The notes beneath the pieces were generated by a model. It ran no database searches. It was not told where the DNA came from and saw nothing but the letters and a program-made list of their open reading frames with translations. From contig NZ_LN885086.1 of the NCBI RefSeq assembly GCF_001458695.1, forward strand, positions 900,001 through 932,000: DNA of 32,000 bases. Reading direction: 5' to 3'. Below, piece after piece: positions 16,821 through 31,782 of the stretch. The translations under genes were made by a program, and so were the position numbers. The stretch's first letter is position 1, and each line of letters opens with the position of its first letter. The DNA is from Candidatus Nitrospira inopinata (GTDB taxonomy: Bacteria > Nitrospirota > Nitrospiria > Nitrospirales > Nitrospiraceae).

Positions 16821-19800
16821 CTATAGTCGAGCTGTGGCTTTCTTCACGTAGCGATGGAAGAGCCAGTCGAGAAATGTCTTGGAAAAATCGGGATCGTCGG
16901 TAATCTGTTTGTAAAACTTGAAGTTCGTGTCGATCATCTCTTGCAACTGGTCGTTGACGACATGGTCAAACGTCAGCCGAGCATTTTCCTTGGTGTTCAC
17001 TTCAACAGCCTTGGCTAAGGCTTCGTTTCTAGACAACTTAGCTTCAAGCTGTTCGATAAAGACCCTGTCCTTCTCGGTAAAATCCGTTCCGAATCGCTCG
17101 TTCAGTTCCCGAATGATCTGCGAAAGGGCCTCGACCTCGTCAACCGGCGGCATCTCGACATCTTTCGTTTTGATCGGCTCAAGCTCGCTCGCTCCACGCC
17201 TGAGCCTGATGCGGCCGCTGCCGGTCTGTTGAACTCGATACGACTCCACATCGATCTGTTGCTGGATTTCGACCGGGAGCCGCTCTCGTGTCACCGGCAG
17301 CTTGCGGAGGAGCAATCGGCCGAAGACATACAGTTTTTCCAAGTCCGCATCGGCAAACGAGATGATCTGGGAGAGAAAGGCATACAGACTGACGAAATCC
17401 TTCAGATGGCCGTGAAACGGCACCCGGTCATCCTCGCGTGCGGCCAGATACCGATCGACGGCCGGTTGCAGAGCGGCGTGCAACCGGTCCTGCGTTCCTT
17501 TCGGATCGAAATAGACCGACGCAAACCGGTTGACCTCATCGGTCGTGTAAAAGTGAACGTCCGCTAACTTCGTCTGCAGATCGTACAAGAGGTTCGGGTC
17601 GGTGCCTTCCTTCAAGAGCGTCCGATCGTAATAGGGTTCGAACGCCTTCTGGATGTCATCGGCTTCGTTGACGAAGTCCAGCACGAACGTCTCTTCCTTC
17701 CCGGGGGCCACCCGATTCAGCCGGGAGAGCGTCTGCACGGCGTTAACGCCGCTGAGTTTCTTATCCACGTACATCGTGTGCAGCAACGGTTGGTCGAAGC
17801 CGGTCTGGAACTTGTACGCCACGATCAGGATTCTGTACTCGTCGCGCTTGAACGTTTCAGCCGTCTGGGACTCAGGGAAGCCGTTCATGTTCGCTTCGGT
17901 GTAGTCGGCGCCGCCGTCACGAACCGTACCTGAGAACGCCACGAGCGCCTTGAAGCCGTAGCCCTTCTCTTTAAGATACCGATCCACGGCCTGCTTGTAG
18001 CGCACGGCGTGCAGCCGCGAGCGCGTGACGATCATCGCCTTGGCCTTGCCGCCAATCCGGTGGATGACTTGGCCGGCGCAATGGTCCACCATGATCGCGA
18101 CCTTCTTCTCGATCGCGTGCGGGTGGAGATCCACGAACGACTTCAGCAGGTAGGTCGCCTTGTGCCGATCGTAGCGGGGATCTTCCGAGATCGTCTTGAG
18201 GAGGTTCCAATAGGTTTTGTAGGTGGTGTAATTTTGGAGGACATCCAGGATAAAGCCTTCCTCGATGGCCTGCCGCATGGTGTAGAGGCTGAAGGGCGCA
18301 TACCGTCCATCCGGCTGTCGGGAGCCGAACAGTTCGAGCGTCTTCGGTTTCGGCGTCGCCGTAAAGGCAAAGTAACTGACATTCGGCAGTTGGCCGCGCT
18401 TCTTCACCTCCCCAATGATCCGGTCTTCCAGATCCTCCCCTTCCTCGCGGTCTTCCTCCTCGGCCAGTTCGAGGCTCCCCGCGGCAAGCACCTGCTTGAG
18501 ACTCTTGGTGCTCTCTCCTGTCTGGGAAGAGTGGGCTTCGTCGATGATCACCGCGAACCGCTTGCCGGGAAGGGCGCCGATTTCGTTGGCGATCACCGGG
18601 AATTTCTGGAGCGTCGTGACGATGATCGTCTTGCCATCTTCCAACGCCTGTTTGAGCTGCCGCGAAGTCGAATCGATGTTTTCGACCACCCCGACCGTCT
18701 GCTCGAATTGCCGGACGGTTCGCTGAAGCTGGCGGTCGAGCACGCGTCGGTCCGTGATGACGATGATGGAATCGAAGACCCGACGATCCGATGCGTCATG
18801 AAGAATGCTGAGCTGGTGCGCCAGCCAAGCGATCGAATTGCTCTTGCCGCTGCCGGCGCTGTGCTGGATCAGATACCGATGGCCGGGGCCCGAATCTTTC
18901 GCTTCCCGCACCAGATTGCGAACCGCATCAAGCTGATGATAGCGCGGGAAGATCAGCGACCGTTCGCCCGTCTTGCGCCCCTTCTCATCTTCCCCCTCAA
19001 CAACCTGCACAAAGTGCTGGATCAGGTTCAGGACGCTATCCCGAGTCCAGATTCGCGCCCACAGGTAGGAGGTGGCAAAGCCGTTCGCCACAGGGGGATT
19101 CCCTGCTCCGCCATACCGACCTTGATTGAACGGCAGGAATCGCGTCCTGACCCCCTGCAAATGGGTGGCCACATACACCAGGTCCGGATCAACGGCGAAA
19201 TGCGCGAGGCACCGGCCGAAGGCGAACAGGGGCTCCTTGGGATCGCGGGTGCGCTGATACTGCCGGATCGCGTCCTGGACGTTTTGCCCGGTGAGCGGAT
19301 TCTTCAATTCGGCGGTGAAGATCGGCAGGCCGTTCAGGAACAGGACCACATCGAGGCTCTTGTCGTTTCTTTCGCTGTATTTGAGCTGGCGAACGACGGC
19401 AAAGAGATTGGCTTCGTACAGCTTCTTGACCTCTTCATTGAGCCCGCTCGACGGACGGAAATAGGCCAGGCGGAACGAGCAGCCGTCCGATTTGATGCCC
19501 TTCCGCAATACCTCCAGCGTCCCGCGTGTCTTGACCTCGGAGGCCAGCCGCCTCAGCAGTCGGTCCCTGGCCTCGGCGCCGTGCTGCTTCGTGAACTTCT
19601 CCCATTCCTTCGGCTGGGTGGCATAGATGAAATGAAGGACGCCTTCAGGAATCAAGCACAGCGCGCGGTCATACTCCTCGGGCGCGATCCGGCGATAGCC
19701 GCCCGGCGCATTCTCGTACCACGCGCCGGGAAGGCCGGCGTACCCTTCCCCGCCTGTCGCGGCCGGTCCCGTACCTTCGAGTAACACGCGCTCGATGGCG

Positions 19801-19832
19801 GCCTCGAAGTTCTTCTCGGAGATGTCCACCAT
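16821..19832 (-). CDS. hsdR: Type I restriction endonuclease, R subunit (HsdR)
   Basis: About 1003 aa. N-terminal PD-(D/E)xK nuclease region (DVVLFLNGLPIFTAELKNPLTGQ). SF2 helicase motifs are present: HSAGSGKSNSIAWLA (Walker A), AVIIDEAHSSQTG (DEAH), FAFTATP, and ..QTLSRLNR. ATG 19832 overlaps (TGATG) the stop of the reconstructed abiEii frame and has GGGAAGG upstream. The ORF track's 19883 start is also possible. Confidence 0.9.
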   Translation of the reverse strand: MVDISEKNFEAAIERVLLEGTGPAATGGEGYAGLPGAWYENAPGGYRRIAPEEYDRALCLIPEGVLHFIYATQPKEWEKFTKQHGAEARDRLLRRLASEVKTRGTLEVLRKGIKSDGCSFRLAYFRPSSGLNEEVKKLYEANLFAVVRQLKYSERNDKSLDVVLFLNGLPIFTAELKNPLTGQNVQDAIRQYQRTRDPKEPLFAFGRCLAHFAVDPDLVYVATHLQGVRTRFLPFNQGRYGGAGNPPVANGFATSYLWARIWTRDSVLNLIQHFVQVVEGEDEKGRKTGERSLIFPRYHQLDAVRNLVREAKDSGPGHRYLIQHSAGSGKSNSIAWLAHQLSILHDASDRRVFDSIIVITDRRVLDRQLQRTVRQFEQTVGVVENIDSTSRQLKQALEDGKTIIVTTLQKFPVIANEIGALPGKRFAVIIDEAHSSQTGESTKSLKQVLAAGSLELAEEEDREEGEDLEDRIIGEVKKRGQLPNVSYFAFTATPKPKTLELFGSRQPDGRYAPFSLYTMRQAIEEGFILDVLQNYTTYKTYWNLLKTISEDPRYDRHKATYLLKSFVDLHPHAIEKKVAIMVDHCAGQVIHRIGGKAKAMIVTRSRLHAVRYKQAVDRYLKEKGYGFKALVAFSGTVRDGGADYTEANMNGFPESQTAETFKRDEYRILIVAYKFQTGFDQPLLHTMYVDKKLSGVNAVQTLSRLNRVAPGKEETFVLDFVNEADDIQKAFEPYYDRTLLKEGTDPNLLYDLQTKLADVHFYTTDEVNRFASVYFDPKGTQDRLHAALQPAVDRYLAAREDDRVPFHGHLKDFVSLYAFLSQIISFADADLEKLYVFGRLLLRKLPVTRERLPVEIQQQIDVESYRVQQTGSGRIRLRRGASELEPIKTKDVEMPPVDEVEALSQIIRELNERFGTDFTEKDRVFIEQLEAKLSRNEALAKAVEVNTKENARLTFDHVVNDQLQEMIDTNFKFYKQITDDPDFSKTFLDWLFHRYVKKATARL

Positions 19833-20009
19833 CAGGCCGACCTTCCCTTCTTGTTCGGCCGCCACGGCCCACCGGCCGGCCACGGGCGCTCGAACGATTC
19901 ATGTGTTGCCGCAGCAATGGTCGGGGGCATGAGAAAGTCCTGCAAGAAACCGATCACGTCCTTCAATGAGACACCTTGGAGACACCTTGCAAGTCCAAGC
20001 CAGCCCGCT

Positions 20010-20783
20010 TCAGGAAGCCCTTCCATTGTGCCTGCTTGTCCTTATTGCCCCAAAATCTTCTGTGAGGCACACGGGAGAAACGGTCGGCAGCGGCATCCGG
20101 CGGCGCTCAAAGGAGCCACGGATAGCTTGAGTAAGATCAGCCCCATCAAACCCGAACTGCCGGGTCAGGGACCAGAGATCGAAGAAATCCTTCGTGCGGC
20201 TATTCGCAATTCCAAGTTCGACCATGGACTGAAACTTCTCCGCGATCACGGTCTCGCGCGGATACGCCAACAGACGAGGCGCTGGAAAATCGAGGAGGGT
20301 GGGATACGTCAAAAAGACGGGCTTTGGCAGGACGACATCGCCAAACCCGATATCCACTTGGATCGGAATGCGGGCCACTCCCAGCCTTGCCTCGAAAGAC
20401 AAGCGAACACCTTGATATTCTTCCCCGTCGCGAATCTCCTCCCCGGTGATGGAGTCGGCAAGGAACTTGAGCCCATCATCCTCGACGGGCGTCCGACAGA
20501 TTTCCTGGAACTCTTTGACGAGCGCAGCAACGTCGTTGGAGCCTTTCCTGAGCAGGTTGAGATCGCGCGTCGCCCGCTGCGGCGTGCCGCTCCACACGGA
20601 GAACACCATCGCGCCCTTCAACACGAACCGCTCGCGCGCAGCCGAACGGCTCAACCGGTACCGCAGGCGTTCCAGCGCATAATAAATGAGCGTCAGTGGA
20701 AAGTCCTCGCCGCGCTCGCGCGAGCGGTTCAGCAAACACTGGCGTACCGAGGCCGCGACATCCTTGACCGATTTCCGAGTCAC
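20010..20783 (-). CDS. abiEii: AbiEii/AbiGii-family nucleotidyltransferase toxin (type IV TA), C-terminally truncated by frame disruptions
   Basis: 257 aa with the DUF1814-type N-terminus (SVRQCLLNRSRERGEDFPLTLIYYALERLRYRLS..RFVLKGAMVF..ATRDLNLL). ATGA overlap with abiEi. The conserved C-terminal segment continues in two other frames down to 19832 (see findings). Confidence 0.8.
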   Translation of the reverse strand: MTRKSVKDVAASVRQCLLNRSRERGEDFPLTLIYYALERLRYRLSRSAARERFVLKGAMVFSVWSGTPQRATRDLNLLRKGSNDVAALVKEFQEICRTPVEDDGLKFLADSITGEEIRDGEEYQGVRLSFEARLGVARIPIQVDIGFGDVVLPKPVFLTYPTLLDFPAPRLLAYPRETVIAEKFQSMVELGIANSRTKDFFDLWSLTRQFGFDGADLTQAIRGSFERRRMPLPTVSPVCLTEDFGAIRTSRHNGRAS

Positions 20784-21394
20784 GCCGTGGCCTCCAGATA
20801 CGGACGCATCACGGCGGTCACCCGGCAGATCTTGGCATAGCGCCAGAGCTCATCCATCCCGCCGCGGTGCTTGCGCCGGTAGTCCCGCAGCGCCTCCAGA
20901 GCCACATCCAGTCCGATCTTGTTCCGGAACTTGAAACAATCGGCCACGGTTTTGGCCTGGCTGAATACCCGGACAGGCACGTTTTCGATGTTGTGCTGCT
21001 CGACGCCCGACTTCAGCGTCGTCCCCGACATGCGGACGATCCGAAGGGGCGGATGCGCCTTCTTCGGAGCGCGGCTTTTTTGATCAATGGCCAGCCAGAT
21101 TTCAAAGGGAGCCTGAGTCGTCAGACCGTGAAAACGCAGAGCGGACAGCAGGCAGACCACGCCCTGCGGTATGCGTTTGCAGGCCTGCGCGAGATGATGA
21201 TGCTCGGTTTGATCGCCTTCGGGGAGCACGTACAGGCCGCGCGAGAATTGCTGGAGCAGGCCGCGCTGATACAGCCGCCTGAGATAAACCGGCGGAATCC
21301 CCCGGTGGGTGAGATCGCGCGTCCGGATCACCTTCAGTTGCCGCGCGATGTCGAGAACCTGCTGCGTTTTTGATTTATTCGACTTAGTCGCCAC
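20780..21394 (-). CDS. abiEi: AbiEi-family antitoxin / transcriptional autoregulator (type IV TA)
   Basis: 204 aa, GTG start. N-terminal winged-helix AbiEi_4-like region (VIRTRDLTHRGIPPVYLRRLYQRGLLQQFSRGLYVLPEG) followed by GVVCLLSALRFHGLTTQ. It sits immediately upstream of, and overlaps, the AbiEii toxin gene. Confidence 0.8.
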   Translation of the reverse strand: MATKSNKSKTQQVLDIARQLKVIRTRDLTHRGIPPVYLRRLYQRGLLQQFSRGLYVLPEGDQTEHHHLAQACKRIPQGVVCLLSALRFHGLTTQAPFEIWLAIDQKSRAPKKAHPPLRIVRMSGTTLKSGVEQHNIENVPVRVFSQAKTVADCFKFRNKIGLDVALEALRDYRRKHRGGMDELWRYAKICRVTAVMRPYLEATA

Positions 21395-21404
21395 TGTTAT
21401 AAAT

Positions 21405-21432
21405 CGTCGGCATTTGTCGATAAGTGCCGACG
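21405..21432. promoter_or_regulatory. Inverted repeat CGTCGGCA-N12-TGCCGACG upstream of abiEi (candidate AbiEi operator)
   Basis: The 8-bp perfect arms lie at 21405-21412 and 21425-21432, 11-38 nt upstream of the abiEi GTG. A TATAAC -10-like hexamer (minus strand, 21396-21401) is adjacent. Confidence 0.4.
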
Positions 21433-21698
21433 TTTTGTAACAGCGTCACGAGGGGAGGTCAAGGATTTTCGTGGCTTGGGGGGAGGGCCGATTATAGGGT
21501 TGGGGCAATTCAGAGAAGGATGCGCGGATTGGATAAAAACACCATCACTTTTCGACAAGTGCAAGCATTTTTATCCAGTTGGCGGCGGTTCCGTCATCAG
21601 CATGATGGTGGTGCTGCTGACGATGATCATCAGTATCCTGGGCAAGTTAACGAAACTGGAGCGTGGTCACCGTGATGATGACGATCATCGTCGGACGG

Positions 21699-21785
21699 CT
21701 TTCCTCACTTCGTCACCCCGGCGCAGGCCGGGGGCCAGTCTTCGTTACTCTGGATTCCGGCTTCCGCCGGAATGACGAATGGCGG
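21699..21785. repeat. GC-rich REP/MITE-like double-hairpin element, copy 1
   Basis: 87 nt. By my hand alignment 79/87 positions are identical to 24172-24258, in the same orientation. It contains the hairpins CCCCGGC-gcag-GCCGGGG and ATTCCGGC-ttcc-GCCGGAAT. Confidence 0.85.
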
Positions 21786-21935
21786 CTCACGCCGGCATCA
21801 CCCACTCCTCCCGCACTTCAATCTTCTCCGTCTCGGAGGCGGACCTGCCTGCCAATAGGCAGGGATGAGAGCGATGCGGTACTTTTCTAGCGTGGTGCAG
21901 CCTACCGAGAGCCTTGGCTACCGGCGTGCCGACGC
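21786..21935 (-). pseudogene. Relic 3' end of a second hsdS gene
   Basis: The minus strand reads ..LEKYRIALI, then a 20-nt hairpin-containing interruption (CCTGCC-aata-GGCAGG at 21848-21863), then SASETEKIEVRE in another frame. Compare the intact HsdS C-terminus LKEYRTALISAAVTGKIDVRE. DNA identity to 24259-24340 is about 70% by eye. An in-frame stop lies just upstream, so there is no TRD. Confidence 0.6.
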
Positions 21936-21961
21936 ACTGTCTTCTCGTCGGAAAACAAACC

Positions 21962-22462
21962 TTACCGAAACCTGACGCCCAGCCTTCTCAGCATCTCGAA
22001 CGTATCCACAAAAGGCACATCAAACGCCTGACACACATTTGGAATTGGGACCTTTCTCTTAATCGAGGGGTTCCAAACTTCCTCGGTGACGACGACACAG
22101 CCCTTGGCCTTCGCGTAGGCCACCAGCCAGCCATCGGCGCCACTGGCGAAATCGGCCTTGGCCGCATCGGAAAACTGGCTCTGCGCCCGGACCCAAGCCA
22201 TGACCTCACCGTAAGCCCGAATGACATCGTCCTTATCCGTCGAGACGAACGCATCATTAAAATTGCTCTTCGCCCAAGCCGCTAGCTTGTCCTTTCCTCG
22301 CCCCAACTCCTGCTTCACACGATCAATACTTCGAAGGTGACCGTTCGCTGCCTGTTGCTCTAGGCTATCCCAGAACCCAGGAACCACATCGAAGGAATAG
22401 TATCGGCGCGCAGCCTGAATAAAGACGTTCGCGTCAAGCACATACGTCGGCCCATTCGTCAC
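21962..22462 (-). CDS. PIN-like nuclease domain protein (DUF4411-like)
   Basis: 166 aa, GTG start overlapping the upstream stop (GTGA). The pattern is YVLDANVFIQAARRYYSFDVVPGFWDSL..SIDRVKQEL..GADGWLVAYAKAKGCVVVTEEV..KVPIPNVCQAFDVPFVDTFEMLRRLG. I recognise this as the DUF4411 / PIN-like layout, with acidic residues in PIN positions. Confidence 0.7.
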   Translation of the reverse strand: MTNGPTYVLDANVFIQAARRYYSFDVVPGFWDSLEQQAANGHLRSIDRVKQELGRGKDKLAAWAKSNFNDAFVSTDKDDVIRAYGEVMAWVRAQSQFSDAAKADFASGADGWLVAYAKAKGCVVVTEEVWNPSIKRKVPIPNVCQAFDVPFVDTFEMLRRLGVRFR

Positions 22463-23613
22463 CGCGGTTCACCAGAGCCAAGCAAGCCGATGTATCGGTC
22501 GAAGGCTCTCCCGTAAAGCCCCGTCAGCCGATACGCTTCGGAGTACAAAAGTTGGCCTTCTTTTACCGCTTGGGCAACGGCGCGGGCAAATTGCCGACCG
22601 ACACGACCGTTTTGGGTCGCGTAGAAGTCTCCACCTTCCGGCCGCCTCGCAGCGTTACGACGTTCATCCTCCTGATAAACCTCGTAGAACTGTAGAAACT
22701 CCGCGCGTTGAATGAGTGCGAGGTCAAGTGCCCGGCGTGCGATAACGAGGACACTGACTTTAAAGTGCCGAGCAAGCCATTGAAACGGCTCATTCTCCCT
22801 TCTCGCCGATGCCCAGACTTCGCGCAACTCGCGCTCAGGAACCAAGCACTCTGCCGCGACCAGATTGCATGCCTGCTCCGTCGGGTCATCTGCAGGCCGA
22901 AGTTCTCGCAAATCGAAGGCGGCGCTGCTACCGAACCACACGTGCGCTAACTCATGCGCGAGCGTGAACATCTGGGCTGCCTTACTATCCGCTCCATTGA
23001 CAAAGACCAGCGGAGCAAAATCGTCAACCAGAACGAAACCGCGAAACTCCTGGGGATCGAGTTTGCGATGCGTGTTGTTCCCCACGATGCCATTGACGAC
23101 GACCAGAATGCCGACGGCTTCCATCGCATCGCGCAGCGCCTGCAAGGCGTCCGTCCAGGTTGGTCGCTGAGCAGCCCAACCCGTTTCAAACCGGAGTGTA
23201 CGCCGGATGCGATCCGCAACCACTTGGGGCGACTCGTTCCGCCTTGCCGACCCGACAAATGGCAAGCGGTCCTGGCCTTGATCGATCAGGAACTCGCGCA
23301 TCCAGGCCTGACGTTGCTGCATTGTCTGGACGGTGTGAAGGAGTTCAGGGCTGGGCCGACTCGGCGTGCCGCCATCGAGCGTCCGGAAGTGAGGGATGGG
23401 TAACCGCTCTTCGGGCGGCGCCGGAAGGAAGAAGAATCCCAGCGGGGTGAGCGTGGCTTTAGCCAGAGATTCGAGCTGGTGCAGCGTGGGTTGGCTTTCG
23501 CCCGATTCCCACTGCTGGATTTTGGGAAACCTCCGACGGAGGACACCAGCCGGCAGGCCAGAGCGATCGACTGCCCAGCGCAAAACGTCCCGGCTAACGG
23601 CGACTCTGCTCAT
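22459..23613 (-). CDS. Xre-type HTH domain fused to an ImmA/IrrE (COG2856, M78) zinc metallopeptidase domain
   Basis: 384 aa from ATG 23613 (GAGAGGTGG upstream). The ORF track's 417-aa start is less likely. The N-terminal HTH region is IQQWESGESQPTLHQLESLAKATLTPLGFFF. The HExxH Zn site is in FTLAHELAHVWFGSSA. Confidence 0.8.
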   Translation of the reverse strand: MSRVAVSRDVLRWAVDRSGLPAGVLRRRFPKIQQWESGESQPTLHQLESLAKATLTPLGFFFLPAPPEERLPIPHFRTLDGGTPSRPSPELLHTVQTMQQRQAWMREFLIDQGQDRLPFVGSARRNESPQVVADRIRRTLRFETGWAAQRPTWTDALQALRDAMEAVGILVVVNGIVGNNTHRKLDPQEFRGFVLVDDFAPLVFVNGADSKAAQMFTLAHELAHVWFGSSAAFDLRELRPADDPTEQACNLVAAECLVPERELREVWASARRENEPFQWLARHFKVSVLVIARRALDLALIQRAEFLQFYEVYQEDERRNAARRPEGGDFYATQNGRVGRQFARAVAQAVKEGQLLYSEAYRLTGLYGRAFDRYIGLLGSGEPR

Positions 23614-23726
23614 AAAGCTTCGCCACCTCTCTATCAGGATCTCTTTGCCTGGCTGCTGCCGGTCAAGAGTCTTTGTCCATCGATCTTCCCTGTCAAGGCC
23701 GTGATCGCACAAGGCCTATTCCTGTC

Positions 23727-23780
23727 CGTCATGCCAGGGCCTGCCCCGGACGGTGATCCGGGGAACGCGGGAATCCGGGC
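23727..23780. repeat. GC-rich REP-like hairpin element (different sub-type)
   Basis: Hairpin CCCCGGA-cggtga-TCCGGGG (23744-23763), followed by GAACGCGGGAATCCGGG. On the minus strand it translates to the IPAFPG-type pseudo-peptide typical of such repeats. It lies immediately 3' of the GIY-YIG gene. Confidence 0.5.
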
Positions 23781-23782
23781 TC

Positions 23783-24070
23783 CTACAAAAGGGACTCGTA
23801 CAAATCCTGCCACTCGGGATTGAGCTTCTCGATCAGCGCGAGTTTCCATCGCCGCTTCCATTCTTTGATCGCCTTTTCACGCCTGATCGCCGACTCCATG
23901 GACTCGTGGGGCTCGTACCAGACAAGCCTGTGGACTTGATACCGCTTCGTAAAGCCCTCCACGAGGTCTTGCTTGTGTTCCCAGACCCGTTTGACTAAAT
24001 CGGAGGTGACCCCAACATACAAGGTCCCGTTCCGGCGACTGGTGAGTATGTACACGCACGGTTGTTTCAT
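23783..24070 (-). CDS. Small stand-alone GIY-YIG nuclease family protein (COG2827/UPF0213-like)
   Basis: 95 aa: VYILTSRRNGTLYVGVTSDLVKRVWEHK..GFTKRY..LVWYE..AIRREKAIKEWKR. This includes the GIY...YVG motifs, the conserved Arg and the Glu of the GIY-YIG fold. Confidence 0.85.
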   Translation of the reverse strand: MKQPCVYILTSRRNGTLYVGVTSDLVKRVWEHKQDLVEGFTKRYQVHRLVWYEPHESMESAIRREKAIKEWKRRWKLALIEKLNPEWQDLYESLL

Positions 24071-24171
24071 GGACCATCGTCGCCCCGTCTCAATCGTCAG
24101 TATCTCGACGGCCCCTGGGATCTATGCCGCGCTTCACTTTTTCCCCCACGACACCTCACCAGAGTTCAGCC

Positions 24172-24258
24172 CTTTCCCCTCTCCGTCACCCCGGTGCAGG
24201 CCGGGGGCCGGTCTTCGTTACTCTGGATTCCGGCTTCCGCCAGAATGACGACTGACGG
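24172..24258. repeat. GC-rich REP/MITE-like double-hairpin element, copy 2
   Basis: 87 nt, direct repeat of 21699-21785 (79/87 identical by hand alignment). It overlaps the last ~13 codons and the stop codon of hsdS. Confidence 0.85.
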
Positions 24259-25576
24259 CCGATGCCGATGCAACGCATTCCTCCCGGACGTCAATCTTCC
24301 CCGTCACTGCGGCGGAGATGAGGGCGGTGCGGTATTCCTTGAGCTTCTCGATTCCTTCGCGGACCTTGGCGATCAGGGCATCGAGCTTGGCGGTTTCGCG
24401 GCCCAACAATTCCGCGATGGCTTGCTGTTCTTTGGTACTTGGAATCGGGGTCATAATCTCAAAAAATTCTTCGGGATAAAGGCGCAGGCGAGATTTCCAA
24501 ACTCCCTTCGAAAAGCGCGTGAGTTCAGACACATGAGGCGGAACCCGACACAGGTGGTCATAGTATCGTGGCAGCAATACCCCGTCTTTGAGCCGATAGA
24601 CGTTATATGAGGGGCTCACCATTCCTGGCTCGCCTGCAATGCCCAGCGCTCCCATCCAAGCCCACATCGTATTAATGACAAGATCATCACGCTCACAGAG
24701 CTTGTACCCTTCATGTGACTCAGCTTCGATCATGTATACTTCTTTTGCGGATCGCTTCGTCACTCCTGTTATGTGAGAAACAGTGAGAAGCTCTTCCTCT
24801 CCTTCGAGCGATCTACGGTCAATTTCGCGAAAGAGAACTTTGTTTCTGTTAATTTTCCAATTCGCCGGGATCTTGCCGAGCCATTCGACGCCGGAGTCTT
24901 TCATCGGCACGGTAGGGTCGAGGCCTTTGGTCACGGCCTGGGTGATGAGTGCGGCGCGCTTCTCCTGGAGCAACTTGATCAGCCGCTCCTTCTTGTCCAC
25001 CAGCGCATCAATCTTCTGCGTCGCTCGGTCGAGGAAGGCGGCGATGGCGCGTTGCTCGTCCACTTTTGGTATCCAGACAACCAGTCTTCCTAATTGACTT
25101 GGATTAATCGCCGGATAGCCAACGCCTTCTGAATACGCTTGCACAGCCTGAACGAATTGTTCTGATTGCACGATTCGCCAAAGGAAGGGCGGATGGAGCC
25201 CAGAGTGAGGCCGCAAGACTGCAAATCCAGTAGAAACAATCAGGTTGTCTGGCGGATCATTGAGATAGGCGATGGCTTTCAGGTAGGTACGAACAGTGGA
25301 GATGATGGTGTCCCCTGACCGTACTTTGCGGCGGGCGCGGCTTGGCGCGTTCTCAAATCGGAGTTCCTCTGTGCCAAGAACATTGCCAGTTGAATCGACA
25401 TTGCTGATGTCAACATATCGAAGCTCATAGTCAGGACTGGTTTCCTCATTAAGTGTTTCTGAATTCATACCGCAACAGTATTTCAGCGGTCTGACCTCCC
25501 AATGCGTCGGAATTTCTCCCAGCCACTCCACGCCGGAGTCCTTGTAGGCCGGATAGGGTTTGAAGCGGCACGGCAT
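24218..25576 (-). CDS. hsdS: Type I restriction-modification specificity subunit (HsdS), two target-recognition domains
   Basis: There is an internal duplication. KDSGVEWLGEIPTHWEV.. and KDSGVEWLGKIPANWKI.. each begin a TRD. The central conserved helix is IDALVDKKERLIKLLQEKRAALITQAVTKGLDP and the distal one is LDALIAKVREGIEKLKEYRTALISAAVTGKIDVRE. I prefer ATG 25576, which does not overlap darG; the ORF track starts at 25705. Confidence 0.9.
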   Translation of the reverse strand: MPCRFKPYPAYKDSGVEWLGEIPTHWEVRPLKYCCGMNSETLNEETSPDYELRYVDISNVDSTGNVLGTEELRFENAPSRARRKVRSGDTIISTVRTYLKAIAYLNDPPDNLIVSTGFAVLRPHSGLHPPFLWRIVQSEQFVQAVQAYSEGVGYPAINPSQLGRLVVWIPKVDEQRAIAAFLDRATQKIDALVDKKERLIKLLQEKRAALITQAVTKGLDPTVPMKDSGVEWLGKIPANWKINRNKVLFREIDRRSLEGEEELLTVSHITGVTKRSAKEVYMIEAESHEGYKLCERDDLVINTMWAWMGALGIAGEPGMVSPSYNVYRLKDGVLLPRYYDHLCRVPPHVSELTRFSKGVWKSRLRLYPEEFFEIMTPIPSTKEQQAIAELLGRETAKLDALIAKVREGIEKLKEYRTALISAAVTGKIDVREECVASASAVSRHSGGSRNPE

Positions 25577-25605: not shown

Positions 25606-26658
25606 TTACTGGGCTGGTTGTTCCGCAATCCATCCCTTCTCCCGAAGCACCTTGGCAGCGAGGTGGATCTGCCCAGGCGAGAACCGACGCTTGCGGTCGG
25701 CCCATCCATAGAAATGTTCGAGCAGCCCGTCCTCGGACGCCGGGTGCTCGCGCGTTACAATCCAGTGGACTGTCGCAAGGAGCTCGAGGCCGAACGGCGA
25801 TTCAAACCCTTCGACCAGCCCGGCAACCCGCTCGAAGCGTTTCAGAGTCTGCGGTCGTTCTTCCAGCGTGCGCCGTGCGTCGTCTACTGCGCCGGGGACA
25901 ATTTCAAGAACCTTATCGGGCGCATCGCCGCCGGAGCCGTAGCCGGAGATGTAGTAACCGTCAATTTCACTCAATACGTGCCGCATGTTCTCAGCGTACG
26001 GTCCGTAAGGCCCCTTCGCGAAACGAAGTCGCAAGGATTCGCCCGCCTCCTGCATGAAATACATAAGCTTGTGAACTTCTAGCAGGGACACGAACGGATC
26101 CAGTAGACCTGCGAGGTAACGCTCCATGAGTCCTAACAGTGCGGCGCGTCCAGGAGTCATCTTCGGTGCCTTACCCTTTCTCATACTTCTGGGTAGAACC
26201 GGTGTGCCGGCTGGTTCGAACACAACAGCACGAACGTTGGAAAGTTCAGACATGGACCGCTCAATGAGGGTACGCACCTTTGCCCAGTCGAGCCCTCCTA
26301 AACCTGCCCCGAGCGGTGGCAGCGCGACGGAGCGAATGTTTCGTTGCCAAATCTCCCTCACCAGTGCTTTGAGCCCAGCCTCGACGTCCTCAATGCGTGC
26401 TTTGCCACGCCAGTGCCGCTTGGTGGGGAAGTTGATGATGTAGCGCGGATTCGCCAACCGGCCGGTTTCGAAGACGAACATGCGTCCGGGCTGTACCTCC
26501 CTCCTGCGGCAGGCGGCGGCATAGGCCTTGAAGTTCTCGGGCCATGCCTTCTTGAATTGCAACGCGATACCTCGCCCCATGAATCCGACGCAGTTCACCG
26601 TGTTCACGAGGGCTTCGGTGTCCTCTTCGAGGATGTTCCCTTTCTTGTACTCGATCAT
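25606..26658 (-). CDS. darG: DarG-type antitoxin: N-terminal macrodomain plus C-terminal DarT-binding domain
   Basis: 350 aa. The macrodomain is GNILEEDTEALVNTVNCVGFMGRGIALQFKKAWPENF..INFPTKRHWRGKARIEDV..VALPPLGAGLGGLDW. AGGAGG lies 7 nt upstream of the ATG. It sits directly downstream of darT. Confidence 0.85.
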   Translation of the reverse strand: MIEYKKGNILEEDTEALVNTVNCVGFMGRGIALQFKKAWPENFKAYAAACRRREVQPGRMFVFETGRLANPRYIINFPTKRHWRGKARIEDVEAGLKALVREIWQRNIRSVALPPLGAGLGGLDWAKVRTLIERSMSELSNVRAVVFEPAGTPVLPRSMRKGKAPKMTPGRAALLGLMERYLAGLLDPFVSLLEVHKLMYFMQEAGESLRLRFAKGPYGPYAENMRHVLSEIDGYYISGYGSGGDAPDKVLEIVPGAVDDARRTLEERPQTLKRFERVAGLVEGFESPFGLELLATVHWIVTREHPASEDGLLEHFYGWADRKRRFSPGQIHLAAKVLREKGWIAEQPAQ

Positions 26659-26674
26659 CGTCGCCCCTCCTGCT

Positions 26675-27325
26675 CTAAAAGTACCATTCGGGACGAACCT
26701 CTACACTTGGCGGAGGATTCAAGCCCGCGAGCGCTGTAGTTGCGCGCAAATGGATGGCAGCCGATCGAACGCCGACACGCTCGACAAGCGTAAATGGGAA
26801 TTTCTCGTACAGCAGGAACTCGGCCTGCTTCCGCTCCTTGATATCAGAGTCTCGGAAATCCCGAGATGCTATTGCGTTCCAGTCGAGATCGCCCAGATTC
26901 CCTACGGTTGCGTAGAACTCGGTGTAGTAGGCGCCAGCGTTGGAGAGCGAGAATGCCCATCGCACGCCATTGGTATCTGCCCACTGAACGACGGTGTGCA
27001 GATCCGCTTCCAAGTGCACGATGGGCTCCTGCCCGCCACAGTAGATCAGCTCTAGGTGATTTGCACGATGGATCACGTATAGCATCACCGAGCGAGGACA
27101 AAAATAGAAGGGAACGTACTCGCCAACCTTGGTCCCGGTGTGGCAATGAACCTCCAACTCCTCAAGCCGTCTGCGCTTGATCCCGGACATGCCGATCGTC
27201 TGAATAGGTCCACCGGAGGTGAGCATCGCTCTGTCCGACAGCAACCCACCGCATCTAACGATGCCGGGCAAGTTGTCCACGTGCGTAATGTGGTAGATCT
27301 TGGGGCGCGAGGGCGGTGTGCTCAT
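26675..27325 (-). CDS. darT: DarT-type (DUF4433) ssDNA ADP-ribosyltransferase toxin
   Basis: 216 aa: KIYHITHVDNLPGIVRCGGLLS..GEYVPFYFCPRSVMLY..WAFSLSNAG.., with the catalytic-Glu context KERKQAEFLLYEKFPF. Paired with a macrodomain gene. Confidence 0.85.
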   Translation of the reverse strand: MSTPPSRPKIYHITHVDNLPGIVRCGGLLSDRAMLTSGGPIQTIGMSGIKRRRLEELEVHCHTGTKVGEYVPFYFCPRSVMLYVIHRANHLELIYCGGQEPIVHLEADLHTVVQWADTNGVRWAFSLSNAGAYYTEFYATVGNLGDLDWNAIASRDFRDSDIKERKQAEFLLYEKFPFTLVERVGVRSAAIHLRATTALAGLNPPPSVEVRPEWYF

Positions 27326-27449: not shown

Positions 27450-29504
27450 TTACGCTCCCGCGCACCCGCCACCGGTCAATTCGCCAAGTATGTGCACAAT
27501 GTCCTGCTCAATGGAGCGGATGTCCGCCTCGATGTCCTCCAACGGTCGAGGCGGCTGGTACGTATAGAAATACCGGTTGAAGTTGATCTCGTAGCCGACC
27601 TTGCCGACTTGGCCATCCTTGTGGTCCACGACGGCACGGTTGATCCAGGCATCCTGGACGTGCGGCTTCACTTCCCGGTCAAAGTAGGCCTGAATGTCTT
27701 CTTTGAGCGGCACGTTCTCGGTATCACGCAGTTCGGGGTCCGGCTCCGGGTTGCCGTCCTCATCCCGGCAAATCTCGGCGGTCTCGTCCCGTTCGGACAG
27801 GGCGTTCAGAATCGCTTCGCGCAGCGACTTGGAGAGTTTTAGGTCCACCTTTTCCTGTGCCTTGTCGAGTTCTTCGATGAACCGCGCTCGGTCTTTGAAG
27901 AGAGTAGACGGAAGGGTCTGAAGCATGGCCAGAATGGCCCCCTGTTTCTTTCGACCTTCCTCTTCCTCCTTGACCCTTTCCTTCGCATGCTTCTTTTTGC
28001 TGACCGCCAAATTCTTCAACGCCGTTTGTTCATTCAGCCTAGCAATCCGTTCAGGGCTGGCCTGGAAGTTGAGCCGCAGCGGGCACTCGACGGTGATCTT
28101 GCGGTAGCCGAAGTCGGTCGTGTTGAAGATCTTGCAGTGCTCGCCTTCCCTGAACGCCGTGAACAGGTCGGTGATCTGCTGAATCTGCTCCGCCGAGATT
28201 TCCCGCCGCTTGTCGCCGAGGCTCCGGCGCATCGGGACCCAAAAGCTGGAGGCGTTGATAAGCTGCACCTTGCCCCTGCGCTTCCTTTCTTTCCGGTTCG
28301 TGAGCACCCATACATAAGTGGCGATGCCGGTATTGTAGAAAAGCTGCTCCGGCATGGCGATGAGGGCTTCCAGCCAGTCGTTCTCCAGAATCCAGCGACG
28401 GATTTCGCTCTCGCCGCTTCCGGCGTCGCCCGTGAAGAGCGGCGAGCCGTTCATGATGATGGCCACGCGGCTGCCGCCGTCTTTCGTGTCCTTCATCCGG
28501 TTGAGCATGTGCTGGAGAAAGAGCAGTTGGCCGTCGCTGATTCGCGGGAGGCCGGCCCCGAACCGGCCGGCATGACCGCGCTCGTGTTCCGCCTCGACGG
28601 CCTCTTGGTCGCGTTTCCAGTCCTTGCCATAGGGAGGATTCGCCAGGAGGTAGTCGAACTGCTTGTCCGCGTGCTTGTCATTGGAGAGGACGCTGCCAAA
28701 GGCAATGTTCTCGGCGTCCCGGCCATCTGGGCTGGTCATCAACATATCCGCTTTGGAGACCGCCCAGGTTTCAGGATTGACTTCCTGGCCGAACAAGTAC
28801 ACGTCGGCATGTGGGTTGATTTCCAGAATCCGCTCTTTGGCGATGGTGAGCATGCCGCCCGACCCACAGCAGGGGTCGGCCACGGTGCGCACGATATGGT
28901 TCTTGGCGAGCACGTCTTTGTCCTGCGCCAGCAGCAGGTTCACCATGAGCCGGATGACTTCGCGCGGCGTGAAGTGCTCGCCGGGGTTCTCGTCGAGGGC
29001 TTCGTTGAACTTGCGGATGAGCTCTTCGAAGATGTAGCCCATCTCATGGTTGGAGACCTTGTCGGGATGCAAGTCAATCGTTTTGAACCGCTCCATGACT
29101 TGGAAGAGCAACCCAGCCTCGTCGAGCTTCTTGATCGTGTTGTCGAAATCGAACTTCTCCAAGACCTCCTTCATGTTCGGGGAGAAGCCGTTGATGTAGT
29201 TACGCAGATTGGCAGCCAGGTTCGGCGCGTCGGCCAGCAGCTTGTCGAAGTCGTAGCGTGACGTATTGTAGAAGGCGTAGCCGGAGACTTTGCACAAGCG
29301 TGGCGCCGGGTTCTCCAGCTTCTTGGCCTTGAGCTTGGCATTTTCTTCTAGAACTTTTTCTTTCGTCGGCGCCAGCACGCAGTCGATGCGCCGCAGGACC
29401 GTGAAGGGCAGGATGACGTCCTGATACTTGCCACGCTTGAACGTGTCACGGATCAAATCCGCCACGTTCCAAATGAAGCTGACTTTCTCGCCGAAGTTGT
29501 TCAT
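27450..29504 (-). CDS. hsdM: Type I restriction-modification DNA methyltransferase subunit (HsdM), N6-adenine
   Basis: 684 aa. HsdM N-terminal domain (IWNVADLIRDTFKRGKYQDVILPFTVLRRID), SAM motif I (VADPCCGSGGML), and catalytic motif IV (YLLANPPYGKDW). Confidence 0.9.
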   Translation of the reverse strand: MNNFGEKVSFIWNVADLIRDTFKRGKYQDVILPFTVLRRIDCVLAPTKEKVLEENAKLKAKKLENPAPRLCKVSGYAFYNTSRYDFDKLLADAPNLAANLRNYINGFSPNMKEVLEKFDFDNTIKKLDEAGLLFQVMERFKTIDLHPDKVSNHEMGYIFEELIRKFNEALDENPGEHFTPREVIRLMVNLLLAQDKDVLAKNHIVRTVADPCCGSGGMLTIAKERILEINPHADVYLFGQEVNPETWAVSKADMLMTSPDGRDAENIAFGSVLSNDKHADKQFDYLLANPPYGKDWKRDQEAVEAEHERGHAGRFGAGLPRISDGQLLFLQHMLNRMKDTKDGGSRVAIIMNGSPLFTGDAGSGESEIRRWILENDWLEALIAMPEQLFYNTGIATYVWVLTNRKERKRRGKVQLINASSFWVPMRRSLGDKRREISAEQIQQITDLFTAFREGEHCKIFNTTDFGYRKITVECPLRLNFQASPERIARLNEQTALKNLAVSKKKHAKERVKEEEEGRKKQGAILAMLQTLPSTLFKDRARFIEELDKAQEKVDLKLSKSLREAILNALSERDETAEICRDEDGNPEPDPELRDTENVPLKEDIQAYFDREVKPHVQDAWINRAVVDHKDGQVGKVGYEINFNRYFYTYQPPRPLEDIEADIRSIEQDIVHILGELTGGGCAGA

Positions 29505-29879: not shown

Positions 29880-29955
29880 TGGTGAGCCGGCTGGGACTCG
29901 AACCCAGGGCCCTCGCCTTAAAAGGGCGATGCTCTACCGACTGAGCTACCGGCTC
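29880..29955 (-). tRNA. tRNA-Lys (anticodon UUU)
   Basis: Minus strand: GAGCCGG-TA-GCTCAGTCGGTAGAGC-A-TCGCC-CTTTTAA-GGCGA-GGGCC-CTGGG-TTCGAGT-CCCAG-CCGGCTC-A-CCA. This folds into a full cloverleaf with the anticodon loop CTTTTAA and an encoded CCA end. Confidence 0.9.
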
Positions 29956-30069: not shown

Positions 30070-31383
30070 TCAGCGTTTTAAACGGCGGGGAGAACAGTCC
30101 AACGGATTGCGAAGCATGATCGTTTCGGCCCGTTTGGAGCCGGTCGAAATCATGTCGATTCGACATTGAACCAGTTCTTCAATGCGGCCCAGGTACCGTT
30201 TGGCTTCCATGGGCAGCCGCTTGTATGTCGTGGCGCCCGTCGTCGAAGCGACCCATCCCTTCATCCGTTGGTACACCGGCCGACAGTCGGTCAAGACGTC
30301 GAGATCCGAGGGCATGTCTTTATAGAGCTTCTCTCCGTGCCGGTATCCGGTGCAGAGCAGCACTTCCCGGTGCCCATCGAGCACATCGAGCTTGGTCAGC
30401 GCGAGCGACGTGAGGCCGTTCACCTGCGCGGCGTACCGTACAAGGACGGCGTCGAACCAGCCGCACCGTCGAGGGCGTCCGGTGGTCGATCCGAATTCAT
30501 TTCCACGCTCTTGCAACCGTTGACCGGTCTCTTCAGTCAGCTCGGTCGGAAACGGACCGCTGCCCACCCTGGTCGTATAGGCCTTTGCGATGCCCAACAC
30601 GCCGTCGATCATCGTGGGGCCGACCCCCGTGCCGGTGCAGGCGCCGCCAGCCGAAGCGCTGGAGGACGTCACGTAGGGATAGGTGCCGAAATCCACGTCG
30701 AGGTGCGTCCCTTGCGCGCCCTCGAAAAGAATCGTCTTGTTCTTCCGAATCTCCCGATTGAGCAACGTGGTCGTATCGGTGACATGGCTTCTGAGACGGT
30801 CGGCGTAGCCCATGTACTGGTGAAACACCTTGTCGACTTGATAAGTCTCGACCTTGTGAAACTGTTCCAAAAACCAATTCATCTCGACGAGATTTTCTTC
30901 CAGCTTCCTTCTGAACAGCGGAGGATTGAGGAGATCGCCCACGCGAATGCCGATCCTCGCCATTTTATCGGCATAGGAAGGACCGATCCCGCGGCCCGTG
31001 GTCCCGATGCGCCGCGACCCCTTCGACTGTTCCGACGCGCGCTCGATCGCCTTGTGGTACGGCAAGATGAGATGCGCACGGTCGCTCACGGCGAAGTTCT
31101 TGCCGATCGCGACGCCCTTGGTCTGGAGTTGATCCATTTCTTCGATCAAAGCGCCCGGGTCCACCACCACGCCGTTGCCGATCGCGCAGGTGACGCCTCG
31201 GTACAAAATACCGGACGGAATCAGGTGAAAGACGTACGTGCCCCGCTCGTTGATGACCGTATGGCCCGCGTTCGAGCCGCCTTGATAGCGCACCACGACG
31301 TCGGCGTCCCGGGCCAAGATGTCCACGATCTTGCCCTTGCCTTCATCACCCCATTGGGCGCCGATAATGACCAAATTGCCCAT
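30070..31383 (-). CDS. purA: Adenylosuccinate synthase
   Basis: 437 aa: MGNLVIIGAQWGDEGKGKIVD (P-loop), GGSNAGHTV, GTTGRGIGPSYADK, and LTKLDVL blocks. Confidence 0.95.
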   Translation of the reverse strand: MGNLVIIGAQWGDEGKGKIVDILARDADVVVRYQGGSNAGHTVINERGTYVFHLIPSGILYRGVTCAIGNGVVVDPGALIEEMDQLQTKGVAIGKNFAVSDRAHLILPYHKAIERASEQSKGSRRIGTTGRGIGPSYADKMARIGIRVGDLLNPPLFRRKLEENLVEMNWFLEQFHKVETYQVDKVFHQYMGYADRLRSHVTDTTTLLNREIRKNKTILFEGAQGTHLDVDFGTYPYVTSSSASAGGACTGTGVGPTMIDGVLGIAKAYTTRVGSGPFPTELTEETGQRLQERGNEFGSTTGRPRRCGWFDAVLVRYAAQVNGLTSLALTKLDVLDGHREVLLCTGYRHGEKLYKDMPSDLDVLTDCRPVYQRMKGWVASTTGATTYKRLPMEAKRYLGRIEELVQCRIDMISTGSKRAETIMLRNPLDCSPRRLKR

Positions 31384-31706: not shown

Positions 31707-31782
31707 GGGGCTGTGGCGCAGCTGGGAGCGCGCGTGAATGGCATTCACGAGGTCGCGGGTTCAATCCCCGCCAGCTCCACCA
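31707..31782 (+). tRNA. tRNA-Ala (anticodon GGC)
   Basis: GGGGCTG-TG-GCGC-AGCTGGGA-GCGC-G-CGTGA-ATGGCAT-TCACG-AGGTC-GCGGG-TTCAATC-CCCGC-CAGCTCC-A-CCA. The G3:U70 pair is the Ala identity element. The anticodon is GGC. Confidence 0.9.

Follow-up and report, generated by a model that had tools for sequence, protein, structure and literature searches.

Why do two direct copies of an 87-nt double hairpin lie within a single restriction-modification (R-M) operon, each joined to an hsdS 3′ end, with three genes between them? The question is raised by a 32,000-nucleotide stretch of the Candidatus Nitrospira inopinata genome (contig NZ_LN885086.1, positions 900,001 to 932,000), which is called the window here and is numbered from its own first letter. 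The locus is a Nitrospira Type I R-M operon on the minus strand, of the form hsdM-darTG-hsdS...hsdR. A preliminary description of this DNA had taken the three genes, for a GIY-YIG, an HTH-peptidase, and a PIN-like protein, as the content of one 2.4-kb cassette, gained or exchanged by recombination at junctions between hsdS 3′ ends and repetitive extragenic palindromic (REP) elements. I consider it probable that the hsdS 3′ end is instead a hotspot at which cargo is stacked and which is kept up by homologous recombination, and that the hairpins, which are Ssn-related motifs (SRMs), belong to the GIY-YIG gene, an ssn-like gene. It was found that relatives differ in the presence, order, and copy number of the units, and that several hsdS 3′ remnants delimit separable cargo.

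Two copies of a repeat fused to the hsdS 3′ end

Comparison of the window with itself fixed the boundaries of the repeat, which proved to be longer than 87 nt. The repeat search gave an ungapped direct repeat of 145 nt (21699-21843 versus 24172-24316; 83% identical), the sole long direct repeat found between 19000 and 27000, and a separate count gave 121 identical positions out of 145. Of the 145 nt, 87 are an SRM doublet and the remaining ~58 are the last part of an hsdS 3′ end. The two 87-nt cores lie in the same orientation and are identical at 79/87 positions by an independent count, just as a hand alignment had indicated, while the adjoining 58 nt derived from hsdS are identical at 42/58. 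The core is better conserved than the hsdS-derived part (91% versus 72%; the latter had been put at about 70%), and the earlier view that the junctions are not a recent simple duplication is supported. The longest exact run between the copies is 31 nt (21738-21768). The features from the last hsdS relic to the intact hsdS gene are listed below, with loci of other genomes cited by L numbers.

21523..21584, no strand: conserved palindrome GGATAAAAA...TTTTTATCC, after the last hsdS relic
21585..21698, no strand: unexplained 114-nt stretch separating REP1 from the conserved palindrome, in the place of the ssn open reading frame (ORF), right SRM, and relic2 of L091
21699..21785, no strand: REP1, the other 87-nt SRM doublet, read from collinearity with L091 as an orphan with no ssn after it
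21711-21738, plus strand: REP1 SRM-A (SRM pattern)
21750-21777, minus strand: REP1 SRM-B (SRM pattern)
21786..21960, minus strand: relicB, a degenerate, frameshifted hsdS 3′ end immediately past the stop codon of DUF4411 (21786-21843 is the hsdS-derived part of repeat copy 1)
21962-22462, minus strand: DUF4411 PIN-like protein of 166 aa (Pfam), predicted toxin partner of the M78 protein
22459-23613, minus strand: M78/ImmA-type metallopeptidase of 384 aa (Pfam), resembling the RosmerTA antitoxin RmrA
About 23675-23705, minus strand: relicA, a probable short and weak hsdS 3′ remnant (ATCACGGCCTTGACAGGGAAGATCGA) upstream of the M78 gene
23722..23782, no strand: degenerate remnant of a hairpin that immediately follows the stop codon of ssn, where relatives have a downstream SRM(-)
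23783..24070, minus strand: ssn-like gene for a 95-aa single-domain GIY-YIG protein (Pfam, alignment)
24172..24258, no strand: REP2, an 87-nt doublet of inverted SRMs, 101 nt upstream of the ssn start
24184-24211, plus strand: REP2 SRM-A (SRM pattern)
24223-24250, minus strand: REP2 SRM-B (SRM pattern)
24218-25576, minus strand: hsdS, Type I specificity subunit of 452 aa with two target-recognition domains (Pfam, PADLOC)
24259..24420, minus strand: distal conserved region of the intact hsdS (...ETAKLDALIAKVREGIEKLKEYRTALISAAVTGKIDVREE...), from sequence comparison (24259-24316 is the hsdS-derived part of repeat copy 2)

Exactly three genes lie between the copies, as had been described. The peptidase among them is of the M78 type; the N-terminal HTH that had been attributed to it was not detected by the Pfam scan.

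Could the resemblance of the copies be due to chance? The G+C content of the window is ~60%, the hairpins of the elements are rich in G and C, and the preliminary description itself had named low complexity as the finding that would undo the repeats. Each hairpin half, however, occurs exactly twice in the 32-kb window with at most 3 mismatches, for which shuffles expect 0.00 matches, the 145-nt alignment is free of gaps, and other genomes hold orthologous junctions. Chance similarity of low-complexity palindromes is therefore practically inconceivable, and it has already been refuted by the repeat, shuffle, and L091 comparisons.

The double-hairpin form was also confirmed by folding. REP1 folds as a three-way double hairpin, with an outer stem and two hairpins (-24.8 kcal/mol, z = -4.3), while the fold of REP2 is weaker (-18.6 kcal/mol, z = -1.3) because of two substitutions in the stem. 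In the fold of REP1, two inverted palindromic units form one long hairpin, with the SRMs opposed. An intrinsic terminator or a known RNA was considered and rejected, since no terminator-like site was found at either 87-nt copy and an Rfam scan of the window gave only two tRNAs and no known RNA at the elements.

It had been stated that each element is immediately preceded by an hsdS 3′ end, intact at copy 2 and a relic at copy 1. Both ends are there, but the hsdS stop codon (24218-24220) lies inside the 87-nt element, within the spacer separating the two REP2 hairpins. The hsdS frame reads through one hairpin (...RHSGGSRNPE*, ...GKIDVREECVASASAVSRHSGGSRNPE*), so the C-terminal tail of HsdS is translated from SRM-B; this 452-aa HsdS is exactly the gene as called on public contigs. 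The hsdS genes of L024, L133, and L114 are also translated through the SRM hairpin, like that of the window (24218-24258), and thus many HsdS proteins have a repeat-encoded tail.

The hairpins resemble the flanks of an ssn gene

What are the hairpins? SsnA of Neisseria meningitidis is a 94-aa single-domain GIY-YIG protein and a site-specific single-strand DNA nuclease, whose binding site is the NTS hairpin CGTCATTCCCGCGMAVGCGGGAATCYRG and whose cut falls just upstream of that hairpin (Chenal et al. 2025, Nat Commun, PMC11893778). Ssn homologs across phyla are flanked by SRMs, and an insertion sequence (IS)-like architecture was noted for NTS-ssnA-NTS (PMC11893778). The 95-aa protein of the window falls within the ~94-100 aa of a single-domain protein of this kind, with Pfam GIY-YIG over residues 4-76 (E = 1e-16) and no other domain. 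The catalytic or metal-binding residues Tyr7, Tyr18, Arg28, Glu65, and Asn84 are invariant in a 12-sequence alignment across several phyla, and the only relative by sequence in the PDB is the UPF0213 protein 1ZG2 (E = 4e-4). From these features, the protein looks like an Ssn-family single-strand DNA nuclease.

The family is very large, with at least 7968 matches, most of which come from short contigs. The best 120 of these at least 7968 matches are 78-100% identical, the top one being the protein of the window itself, and by the names of their source records they include Binatia, Omnitrophica, Deltaproteobacteria, and several Pseudomonadota. The protein is ~80% identical across distant phyla, with a mean column identity of 85%, which is unusually high for 95 aa and suggests either horizontal spread or strong constraint.

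The minus-strand hairpin SRM-B, CGTCATTCCGGCGGAAGCCGGAATCCAG, agrees with the Neisseria NTS consensus at 25/28 positions; of the three differences, two compensate for each other as a stem pair. The published SRM pattern, HGTCWYN(0-2)YYVSBRHN(0-5)WNVSBRGN(0-2)RNCYNB (Chenal 2025, PMC11893778), has 3 matches in the window against 0.35 ± 0.59 expected (100 dinucleotide shuffles), and once a single position in the loop is relaxed it picks out all four hairpins of REP1 and REP2. SRM-A upstream of ssn fits the pattern strictly, and SRM-B only with the relaxed position. The hairpin downstream of ssn is degenerate and does not match.

Gene flanks were printed for eight GIY-YIG loci. In Sulfuricaulis L101 and Omnitrophica L103, which are unrelated contexts, inverted copies of the hairpin of the window tightly bracket the GIY-YIG gene: the upstream hairpin GTCATTCCGGCGAAAGCCGGAATCCAG lies 9-14 nt before the start codon, and its reverse complement lies 0-6 nt after the stop codon. 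Among the 74 metagenomic relatives with enough flank, an SRM was found upstream of ssn in 62/74, downstream in 64/74, on both sides in 57/74, and in the canonical orientation in 43/74. L011, which has no ssn gene, has no SRM in 22 kb. Judged by the pattern, two NTS-like SRMs in inverted orientation, of the form CGTCAYYCCGGC-loop-GCCGGRRYCCAG, make up each 87-nt element as a REPIN-like doublet. The best reading of these comparisons is that the SRMs are the cognate sites and usual flanks of an Ssn-family GIY-YIG nuclease gene, here beside copy 2, and the element, called REP before, is not a neutral junction but is better described as an SRM doublet tied to the GIY-YIG gene. In the library searched, no paper joining GIY-YIG with repetitive extragenic palindromic elements was found.

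Two further SRM occurrences were seen. In L099 (Pseudomonadota), an SRM-pattern match (TGTCATTCCGGCGAAAGCCGGAATCCAG) lies within the hsdM coding region at 1402-1429. In L167, the ssn 3′ end and the SRM doublet are partly tandem-duplicated (~4810-4960 and 5290-5370) in a context unrelated to hsd.

Cargo at the hsdS 3′ end differs among relatives

Is the arrangement of the window found in other genomes? Relatives were found by an hsdM-anchored genome scan, and their layouts were established by protein and DNA comparison. The closest hsdM relatives in Nitrospiraceae are L024 (94%) and L011 (83%). The layouts are as follows.

L011: hsdS-M78-DUF4411-relic, with the M78 start 10 nt past the hsdS stop; no ssn, SRM, or AbiE
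L024: hsdS-SRMs-ssn-SRMs-relic-AbiE
L091/L111: hsdS-137-aa ORF-relic-M78-DUF4411-relic-SRM doublet-ssn-SRMs-relic-AbiE-hsdR
L093: hsdS 3′ end-SRM-near-identical second hsdS 3′ end-ssn-SRMs-hsdR
L133: hsdS...GACGTGCGGGAG / SRM / ssn / SRM / GTCCGCG...GAGGTCTAG
L114: two tandem units, with most of ssn deleted in the first
L077 and L056 (more distant): hsdS-M78-DUF4411(-hsdR), tight, without a relic

Between the hsdS 3′ copies, the ssn unit stands alone in L024, L114, and L133, and M78-DUF4411 stands alone in L011; L091 has both in the opposite order, M78-DUF4411 and then GIY-YIG. Since relatives have them singly and in a different order, ssn, together with its SRMs, is a module independent of M78-DUF4411. 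In L133, the ~390-nt SRM-ssn-SRM unit is flanked by a ~80-bp duplication of the hsdS end, and the native stop is in the downstream copy. Related genomes with other cargo between the repeats, whose existence had been suggested as a check, were thus found (L024, L114, L133, L011, and L091). As for the cassette itself, the junctions are homologous, the cargo of relatives differs, and it is fair to speak of recombination at hsdS 3′ repeats, but the three genes are not one unit. The repeats had also been said to become incidental if related genomes carried the genes without them. L011 has M78-DUF4411 without the 87-nt element, so the hairpin part is incidental to that pair, yet hsdS 3′ repeats flank it there too.

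The composite of hsdS 3′ end and SRM doublet is also repeated in a Type I family unrelated to that of the window. Between the hsdS and ssn genes of L099 (Pseudomonadota), about five units of ~220 nt follow one another in tandem, and each combines at least the last 35 nt of hsdS with an SRM doublet. In L118, a 267-nt direct repeat (87% identical) begins inside hsdS, and its second copy ends at ssn. Type I genes of one or the other of these two families adjoin ssn in 6/80 of the closest metagenomic ssn loci, which is probably an undercount because many loci are short. Duplicated hsdS 3′ ends also flank inserts free of SRMs: in the Hydrogenedentota metagenome-assembled genome L081 (4700-5010), ~12 tandem 21-mers (GACTTACGGACGTCTGTGAAC-like) lie between the hsdS stop and a 39-nt duplicate of the hsdS end, and in L022 the insert is palindromic non-coding DNA. 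From these comparisons, stacked cargo appears to be bounded repeatedly by hsdS 3′ remnants fused to SRM doublets, in two Type I families that are not related to each other.

The 137-aa ORF of L091 (1308-1721), between the intact hsdS and the relic upstream of M78, is apparently membrane-associated (by eye) and has no Pfam match on record. It is a further cargo type at the same hotspot.

Remnants of hsdS in the window

Besides the 3′ end of the intact hsdS, the window has relicB after DUF4411 and probably relicA upstream of M78, which would make three hsdS 3′ ends in all. RelicB is interrupted by a ~20-nt palindromic insertion (CCTGCCTATTGGCAGGCAGG) at 21850-21870 (CCTGCC...GGCAGG). The insertion is common to the relics of the window, L011 (16297-16318), and L024 (14090-14110), while intact hsdS genes are without it; thus, the relics are old and orthologous. 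The M78-DUF4411-relic block is collinear between the window and L011. RelicA has the derived GCCTTG in common with the L091 remnant at the same position, just upstream of M78, whose score of 28 was reached by 0/1000 shuffles. It is probably a third hsdS remnant, which would split the three-gene interval into two slots. The slots marked off by hsdS 3′ ends would be (1) SRM doublet-ssn-SRM remnant, (2) M78-DUF4411, and (3) the orphan REP1, followed by the AbiE pair and hsdR.

RelicB and REP1 are collinear with the relic and SRM doublet that precede ssn in L091, and the similarity runs ~35 nt past the second hairpin. Of what follows in L091, the window has neither the ssn ORF nor the right-hand SRM beyond REP1, and little of the next relic. 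Since the doublets are collinear while the ORF and the right SRM are gone, the best reading of REP1 is that of an orphan, the left flank remaining from an older ssn unit such as L091 still has at that position. By eye, REP1 and REP2 have a 16-nt spacer deletion in common relative to the L091 and L024 doublets, which makes them each other's closest relatives.

Relics were examined in the window, L011, L024, L091, L114, L133, L093, L109, L081, L022, L099, and L118. In these 12 loci, they cover the last ~35-140 nt of hsdS and start directly at the cargo boundary. No fragment of a target-recognition domain was found in any of them; only the conserved distal region is represented.

How the arrangement may have arisen

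The stacking hotspot would have the following history. An ancestor resembling L091 would have had hsdS-M78-DUF4411-relic-SRM-ssn-SRM-relic-AbiE, and in the lineage of the window an ssn unit would now lie at the intact hsdS end, with the older unit decayed to REP1. Homologous recombination of the host would use the conserved distal hsdS region as a homology arm, through hsdS allele replacement, unequal crossing-over, or gene conversion. In each event, the 3′ end of the resident gene would become a downstream relic, and the cargo between the copies would be stacked, swapped, or deleted. This mechanism fits the contrast between HsdM proteins, which are 83-94% identical across loci, and HsdS proteins, which are only ~37-39% identical. 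It also fits the L011 relic, which is nearer to the intact hsdS end of L024 (90%) than to its own (78%), and the near-identical tandem copies of L114 (97%). The identity matrix behind the L011 and L114 contrasts, its only use, compares ~60-nt segments and has low resolution, and a tree of the hsdS 3′ copies for dating the duplications was dropped for the same reason. The better preservation of the SRM core than of the hsdS part fits functional or homogenised sites beside decaying pseudogene fragments, which the relics would be. Cleavage by Ssn at the junctions may itself promote duplication or exchange.

Several points weigh against this history. All contigs compared (10 of 15 Logan and 3 of 7 JGI) are 100% identical to the window, and look-ups with GIY-YIG and hsdS gave no empty site, deletion, or circle in the same population; the version with hsdS directly followed by abiEi, proposed earlier as a check, was thus not found in these contigs. 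Because the source population shows no polymorphism, recombination is deduced only from comparison between species. The history does not account for the first hsdS 3′ duplication. The Ssn assignment is a putative one, drawn from size, domain, residues, and flanking SRMs. RelicA is weak alone, its score being reached by 8/500 and 33/1000 shuffles. A ghost ssn in the 114 nt after REP1 (21585-21698) was rejected, as the internal similarity to the ssn unit was not significant (75/500 shuffles), and only the synteny with L091 was kept. The sequences past the right ends of REP1 and REP2 are unrelated, and simple copying of a complete ssn unit from the old site to the new one does not fit cleanly.

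Which other explanations could account for the locus? It is fairly unlikely that Ssn itself drove the insertion, with an IS-like SRM-ssn-SRM unit entering the hsdS 3′ end and making a 35-140 bp flanking duplication, through single-strand cuts beside the SRM and then fill-in or template switching, and with other cargo added later. The clean hsdS 3′ duplications directly flanking SRM-ssn-SRM in L133 and L114, the amplification of hsdS tail plus SRM doublet in the unrelated Type I family, and the published IS-like architecture and cut just upstream of the motif (Chenal 2025, PMC11893778) would all agree with it. Among 80 ssn loci, however, long target-gene duplications occur in hsd loci only. A long target-site duplication as a general ssn trait was accordingly rejected, since the strong flanking repeats of non-hsd loci are SRM/BIME arrays or partial unit duplications; furthermore, hsdS 3′ duplications flank SRM-free cargo too (L011, L081, and L022), and Ssn has no known transposition activity. 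Distinctly unlikely is a recombinase-free, integron-like capture, in which hsdS-3′/SRM junctions would be cassette boundaries, Ssn and the hairpins would drive the duplication, stacking, and exchange of defence modules, and Ssn would be a partner of the R-M system that restricts single-stranded DNA. At the hsdS-3′/hairpin junctions, immediately 5′ of SRM-B copies with like orientation, single-stranded DNA would be nicked by Ssn; segments of unit length, each ending with hsdS 3′ sequence, would thereby be released or exposed and would invade any other hsdS 3′ end.

The single 2.4-kb cassette of GIY-YIG, M78, and DUF4411, gained or exchanged as a unit between hsdS-3′/REP junctions, is highly doubtful. 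Exactly these three genes are bracketed by direct repeats, and the Logan unitig L001 runs exactly from repeat to repeat, but its ends are explained by the 31-nt exact run common to both copies, which breaks a k=31 assembly graph. In relatives, the modules are separate and in another order, a probable third hsdS remnant lies between ssn and M78 in the window, and the M78-DUF4411 of L011 stands between hsdS 3′ repeats without any 87-nt element. A tandem hsdS array in which the downstream bodies were deleted and the 3′ ends left, the alternative offered in the preliminary description, is very improbable. Arrays of several hsdS genes exist in other bacteria, and here several hsdS 3′ ends lie in direct orientation. 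The relics, however, begin at the cargo boundary and comprise only the conserved distal region in all 12 loci, with no target-recognition-domain fragment that would support a lost body.

Comparison with known systems

The components of the locus are of known kinds: Ssn with SRMs, a toxin-antitoxin-like M78-DUF4411 pair, and cargo in a Type I operon. As in the Ssn/SRM system of Neisseria (PMC11893778), a ~95-aa single-domain GIY-YIG protein is encoded, the gene is bracketed by oriented hairpins with flanks CGTCAT...GGAATCCAG, and the repeats cluster around particular genes. Unlike in Neisseria (PMC11893778), the unit of the window has its place within a Type I R-M operon, where it is joined to the 3′ end of hsdS; the translated hsdS frame runs through one of the hairpins, the hairpins form doublets that are co-duplicated with hsdS sequence, and only two doublets lie in 32 kb rather than hundreds of dispersed copies. 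The inverted hairpin doublets folding as one long stem, the dedicated nuclease gene flanked by its own repeats, and the tandem mosaic arrays (L099) are reminiscent of REP/REPIN/BIME elements with RAYT (TnpA-REP). The enzyme here is a GIY-YIG nuclease and not a Y1 (HUH) transposase, and the Pfam scan of the 10 ORFs from hsdM to hsdR found no Y1 (IS200/IS605-like) transposase domain.

Accessory defence and toxin-antitoxin genes are embedded in Type I R-M operons, and minimal mobile elements of Neisseria are exchanged by flanking homology. Like such cargo, DarTG, AbiE, M78-DUF4411, and ssn lie between conserved hsd genes, vary in content, and have no dedicated recombinase. The slot boundaries in the window, in contrast, are marked by repeated hsdS 3′ remnants. 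Such remnants with SRM doublets as cargo boundaries were not found described in the literature, where no query was aimed at hsdS 3′ remnants. No tyrosine or serine recombinase domain was found among the ORFs of the locus (Pfam, PADLOC), which does not suggest an integron-like or integrase-driven cassette or island with a duplicated gene 3′ end as its att site.

Phase-variable Type I systems have silent hsdS′ copies and a recombinase. The window likewise has extra partial hsdS sequences beside the expressed gene, but it does not look like an hsdS shufflon: the copies are direct, frameshifted, and of the distal region only, without target-recognition domains, and no invertase or other recombinase gene is present.

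HTH-ImmA(M78) antitoxins are known from RosmerTA, and HTH-DUF955 with DUF4411 has been predicted as a three-component toxin-antitoxin system (Ernits 2023, PMC10440598; Matelska 2017, PMC5499597). The window has the same order of an M78-peptidase gene and then a small toxin-like gene, as a co-transcribed pair (PMC10440598, PMC5499597). Unlike in RosmerTA (PMC10440598), the M78 protein has several matches to PADLOC RmrA models that are all weak (best E = 2e-12), and the DUF4411 protein matches no PADLOC model, RmrT included; the toxin-antitoxin role is a predicted one.

It was only in 2025 that Ssn nucleases were described together with their hairpin motifs, and the hairpin-ssn-hairpin unit has an IS-like look without evidence of mobility. 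The present locus gives a comparison of an unoccupied state, hsdS-M78 (L011), with an occupied one, hsdS-SRM-ssn-M78 (the window), and among the relatives, cleanly duplicated flanks are seen in L133, and units in tandem or in decay in L114 and L099. It can now be tested whether Ssn and SRMs promote local duplication and recombination, and whether a nuclease for single-stranded DNA serves restriction systems as a functional accessory. Remnants of the hsdS 3′ end could serve as marks of accessory defence cargo within Type I operons.

The rest of the operon

In the minus-strand direction, the order is hsdM, DarT, DarG, hsdS, REP2, GIY-YIG, M78, DUF4411, hsdS relic, REP1, AbiEi, AbiEii, and hsdR. 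Pfam and PADLOC matches for hsdM, hsdS, and hsdR in one locus identify a Type I R-M system. The remaining genes, all on the minus strand with Pfam and PADLOC matches, are as follows.

27450-29504, minus strand: hsdM
26675-27325, minus strand: DarT, between hsdM and hsdS
25606-26658, minus strand: DarG, between hsdM and hsdS
20780-21394, minus strand: AbiEi
20010-20783, minus strand: AbiEii
16821-19883, minus strand: hsdR

The DarT-DarG pair (25606-27325) represents a second cargo slot of the operon, and in L018 (Verrucomicrobiia) DarTG is likewise downstream of a related hsdM. The hsd island is flanked by tRNA-Lys/purA on one side and by an acyl-CoA dehydrogenase gene on the other. The tRNA-Lys(UUU) gene (29880-29955) is directly upstream of hsdM, the ORF at 30070-31383 is purA, and a tRNA-Ala(GGC) gene lies beyond it (31707-31782). 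The whole island adjoins a tRNA gene, yet there is no integrase in it.

A palindrome, GGATAA(A/T)A...TTTTATCC, always follows the last hsdS relic: in the window (21523-21584), L024 (14165-14215), L011 (16376-16425), L091 (4438-4483), and L114 (~5420-5465). It is present in L011 too, where AbiE genes do not follow. Just upstream of abiEi, at 21405-21432, there is a hairpin with a 12-bp stem (CGTCGGCA...TGCCGACG then TTTTGTAAC), whose motif was also found upstream of abiEi in L091 and L024. This hairpin may be an AbiEi operator rather than a terminator.

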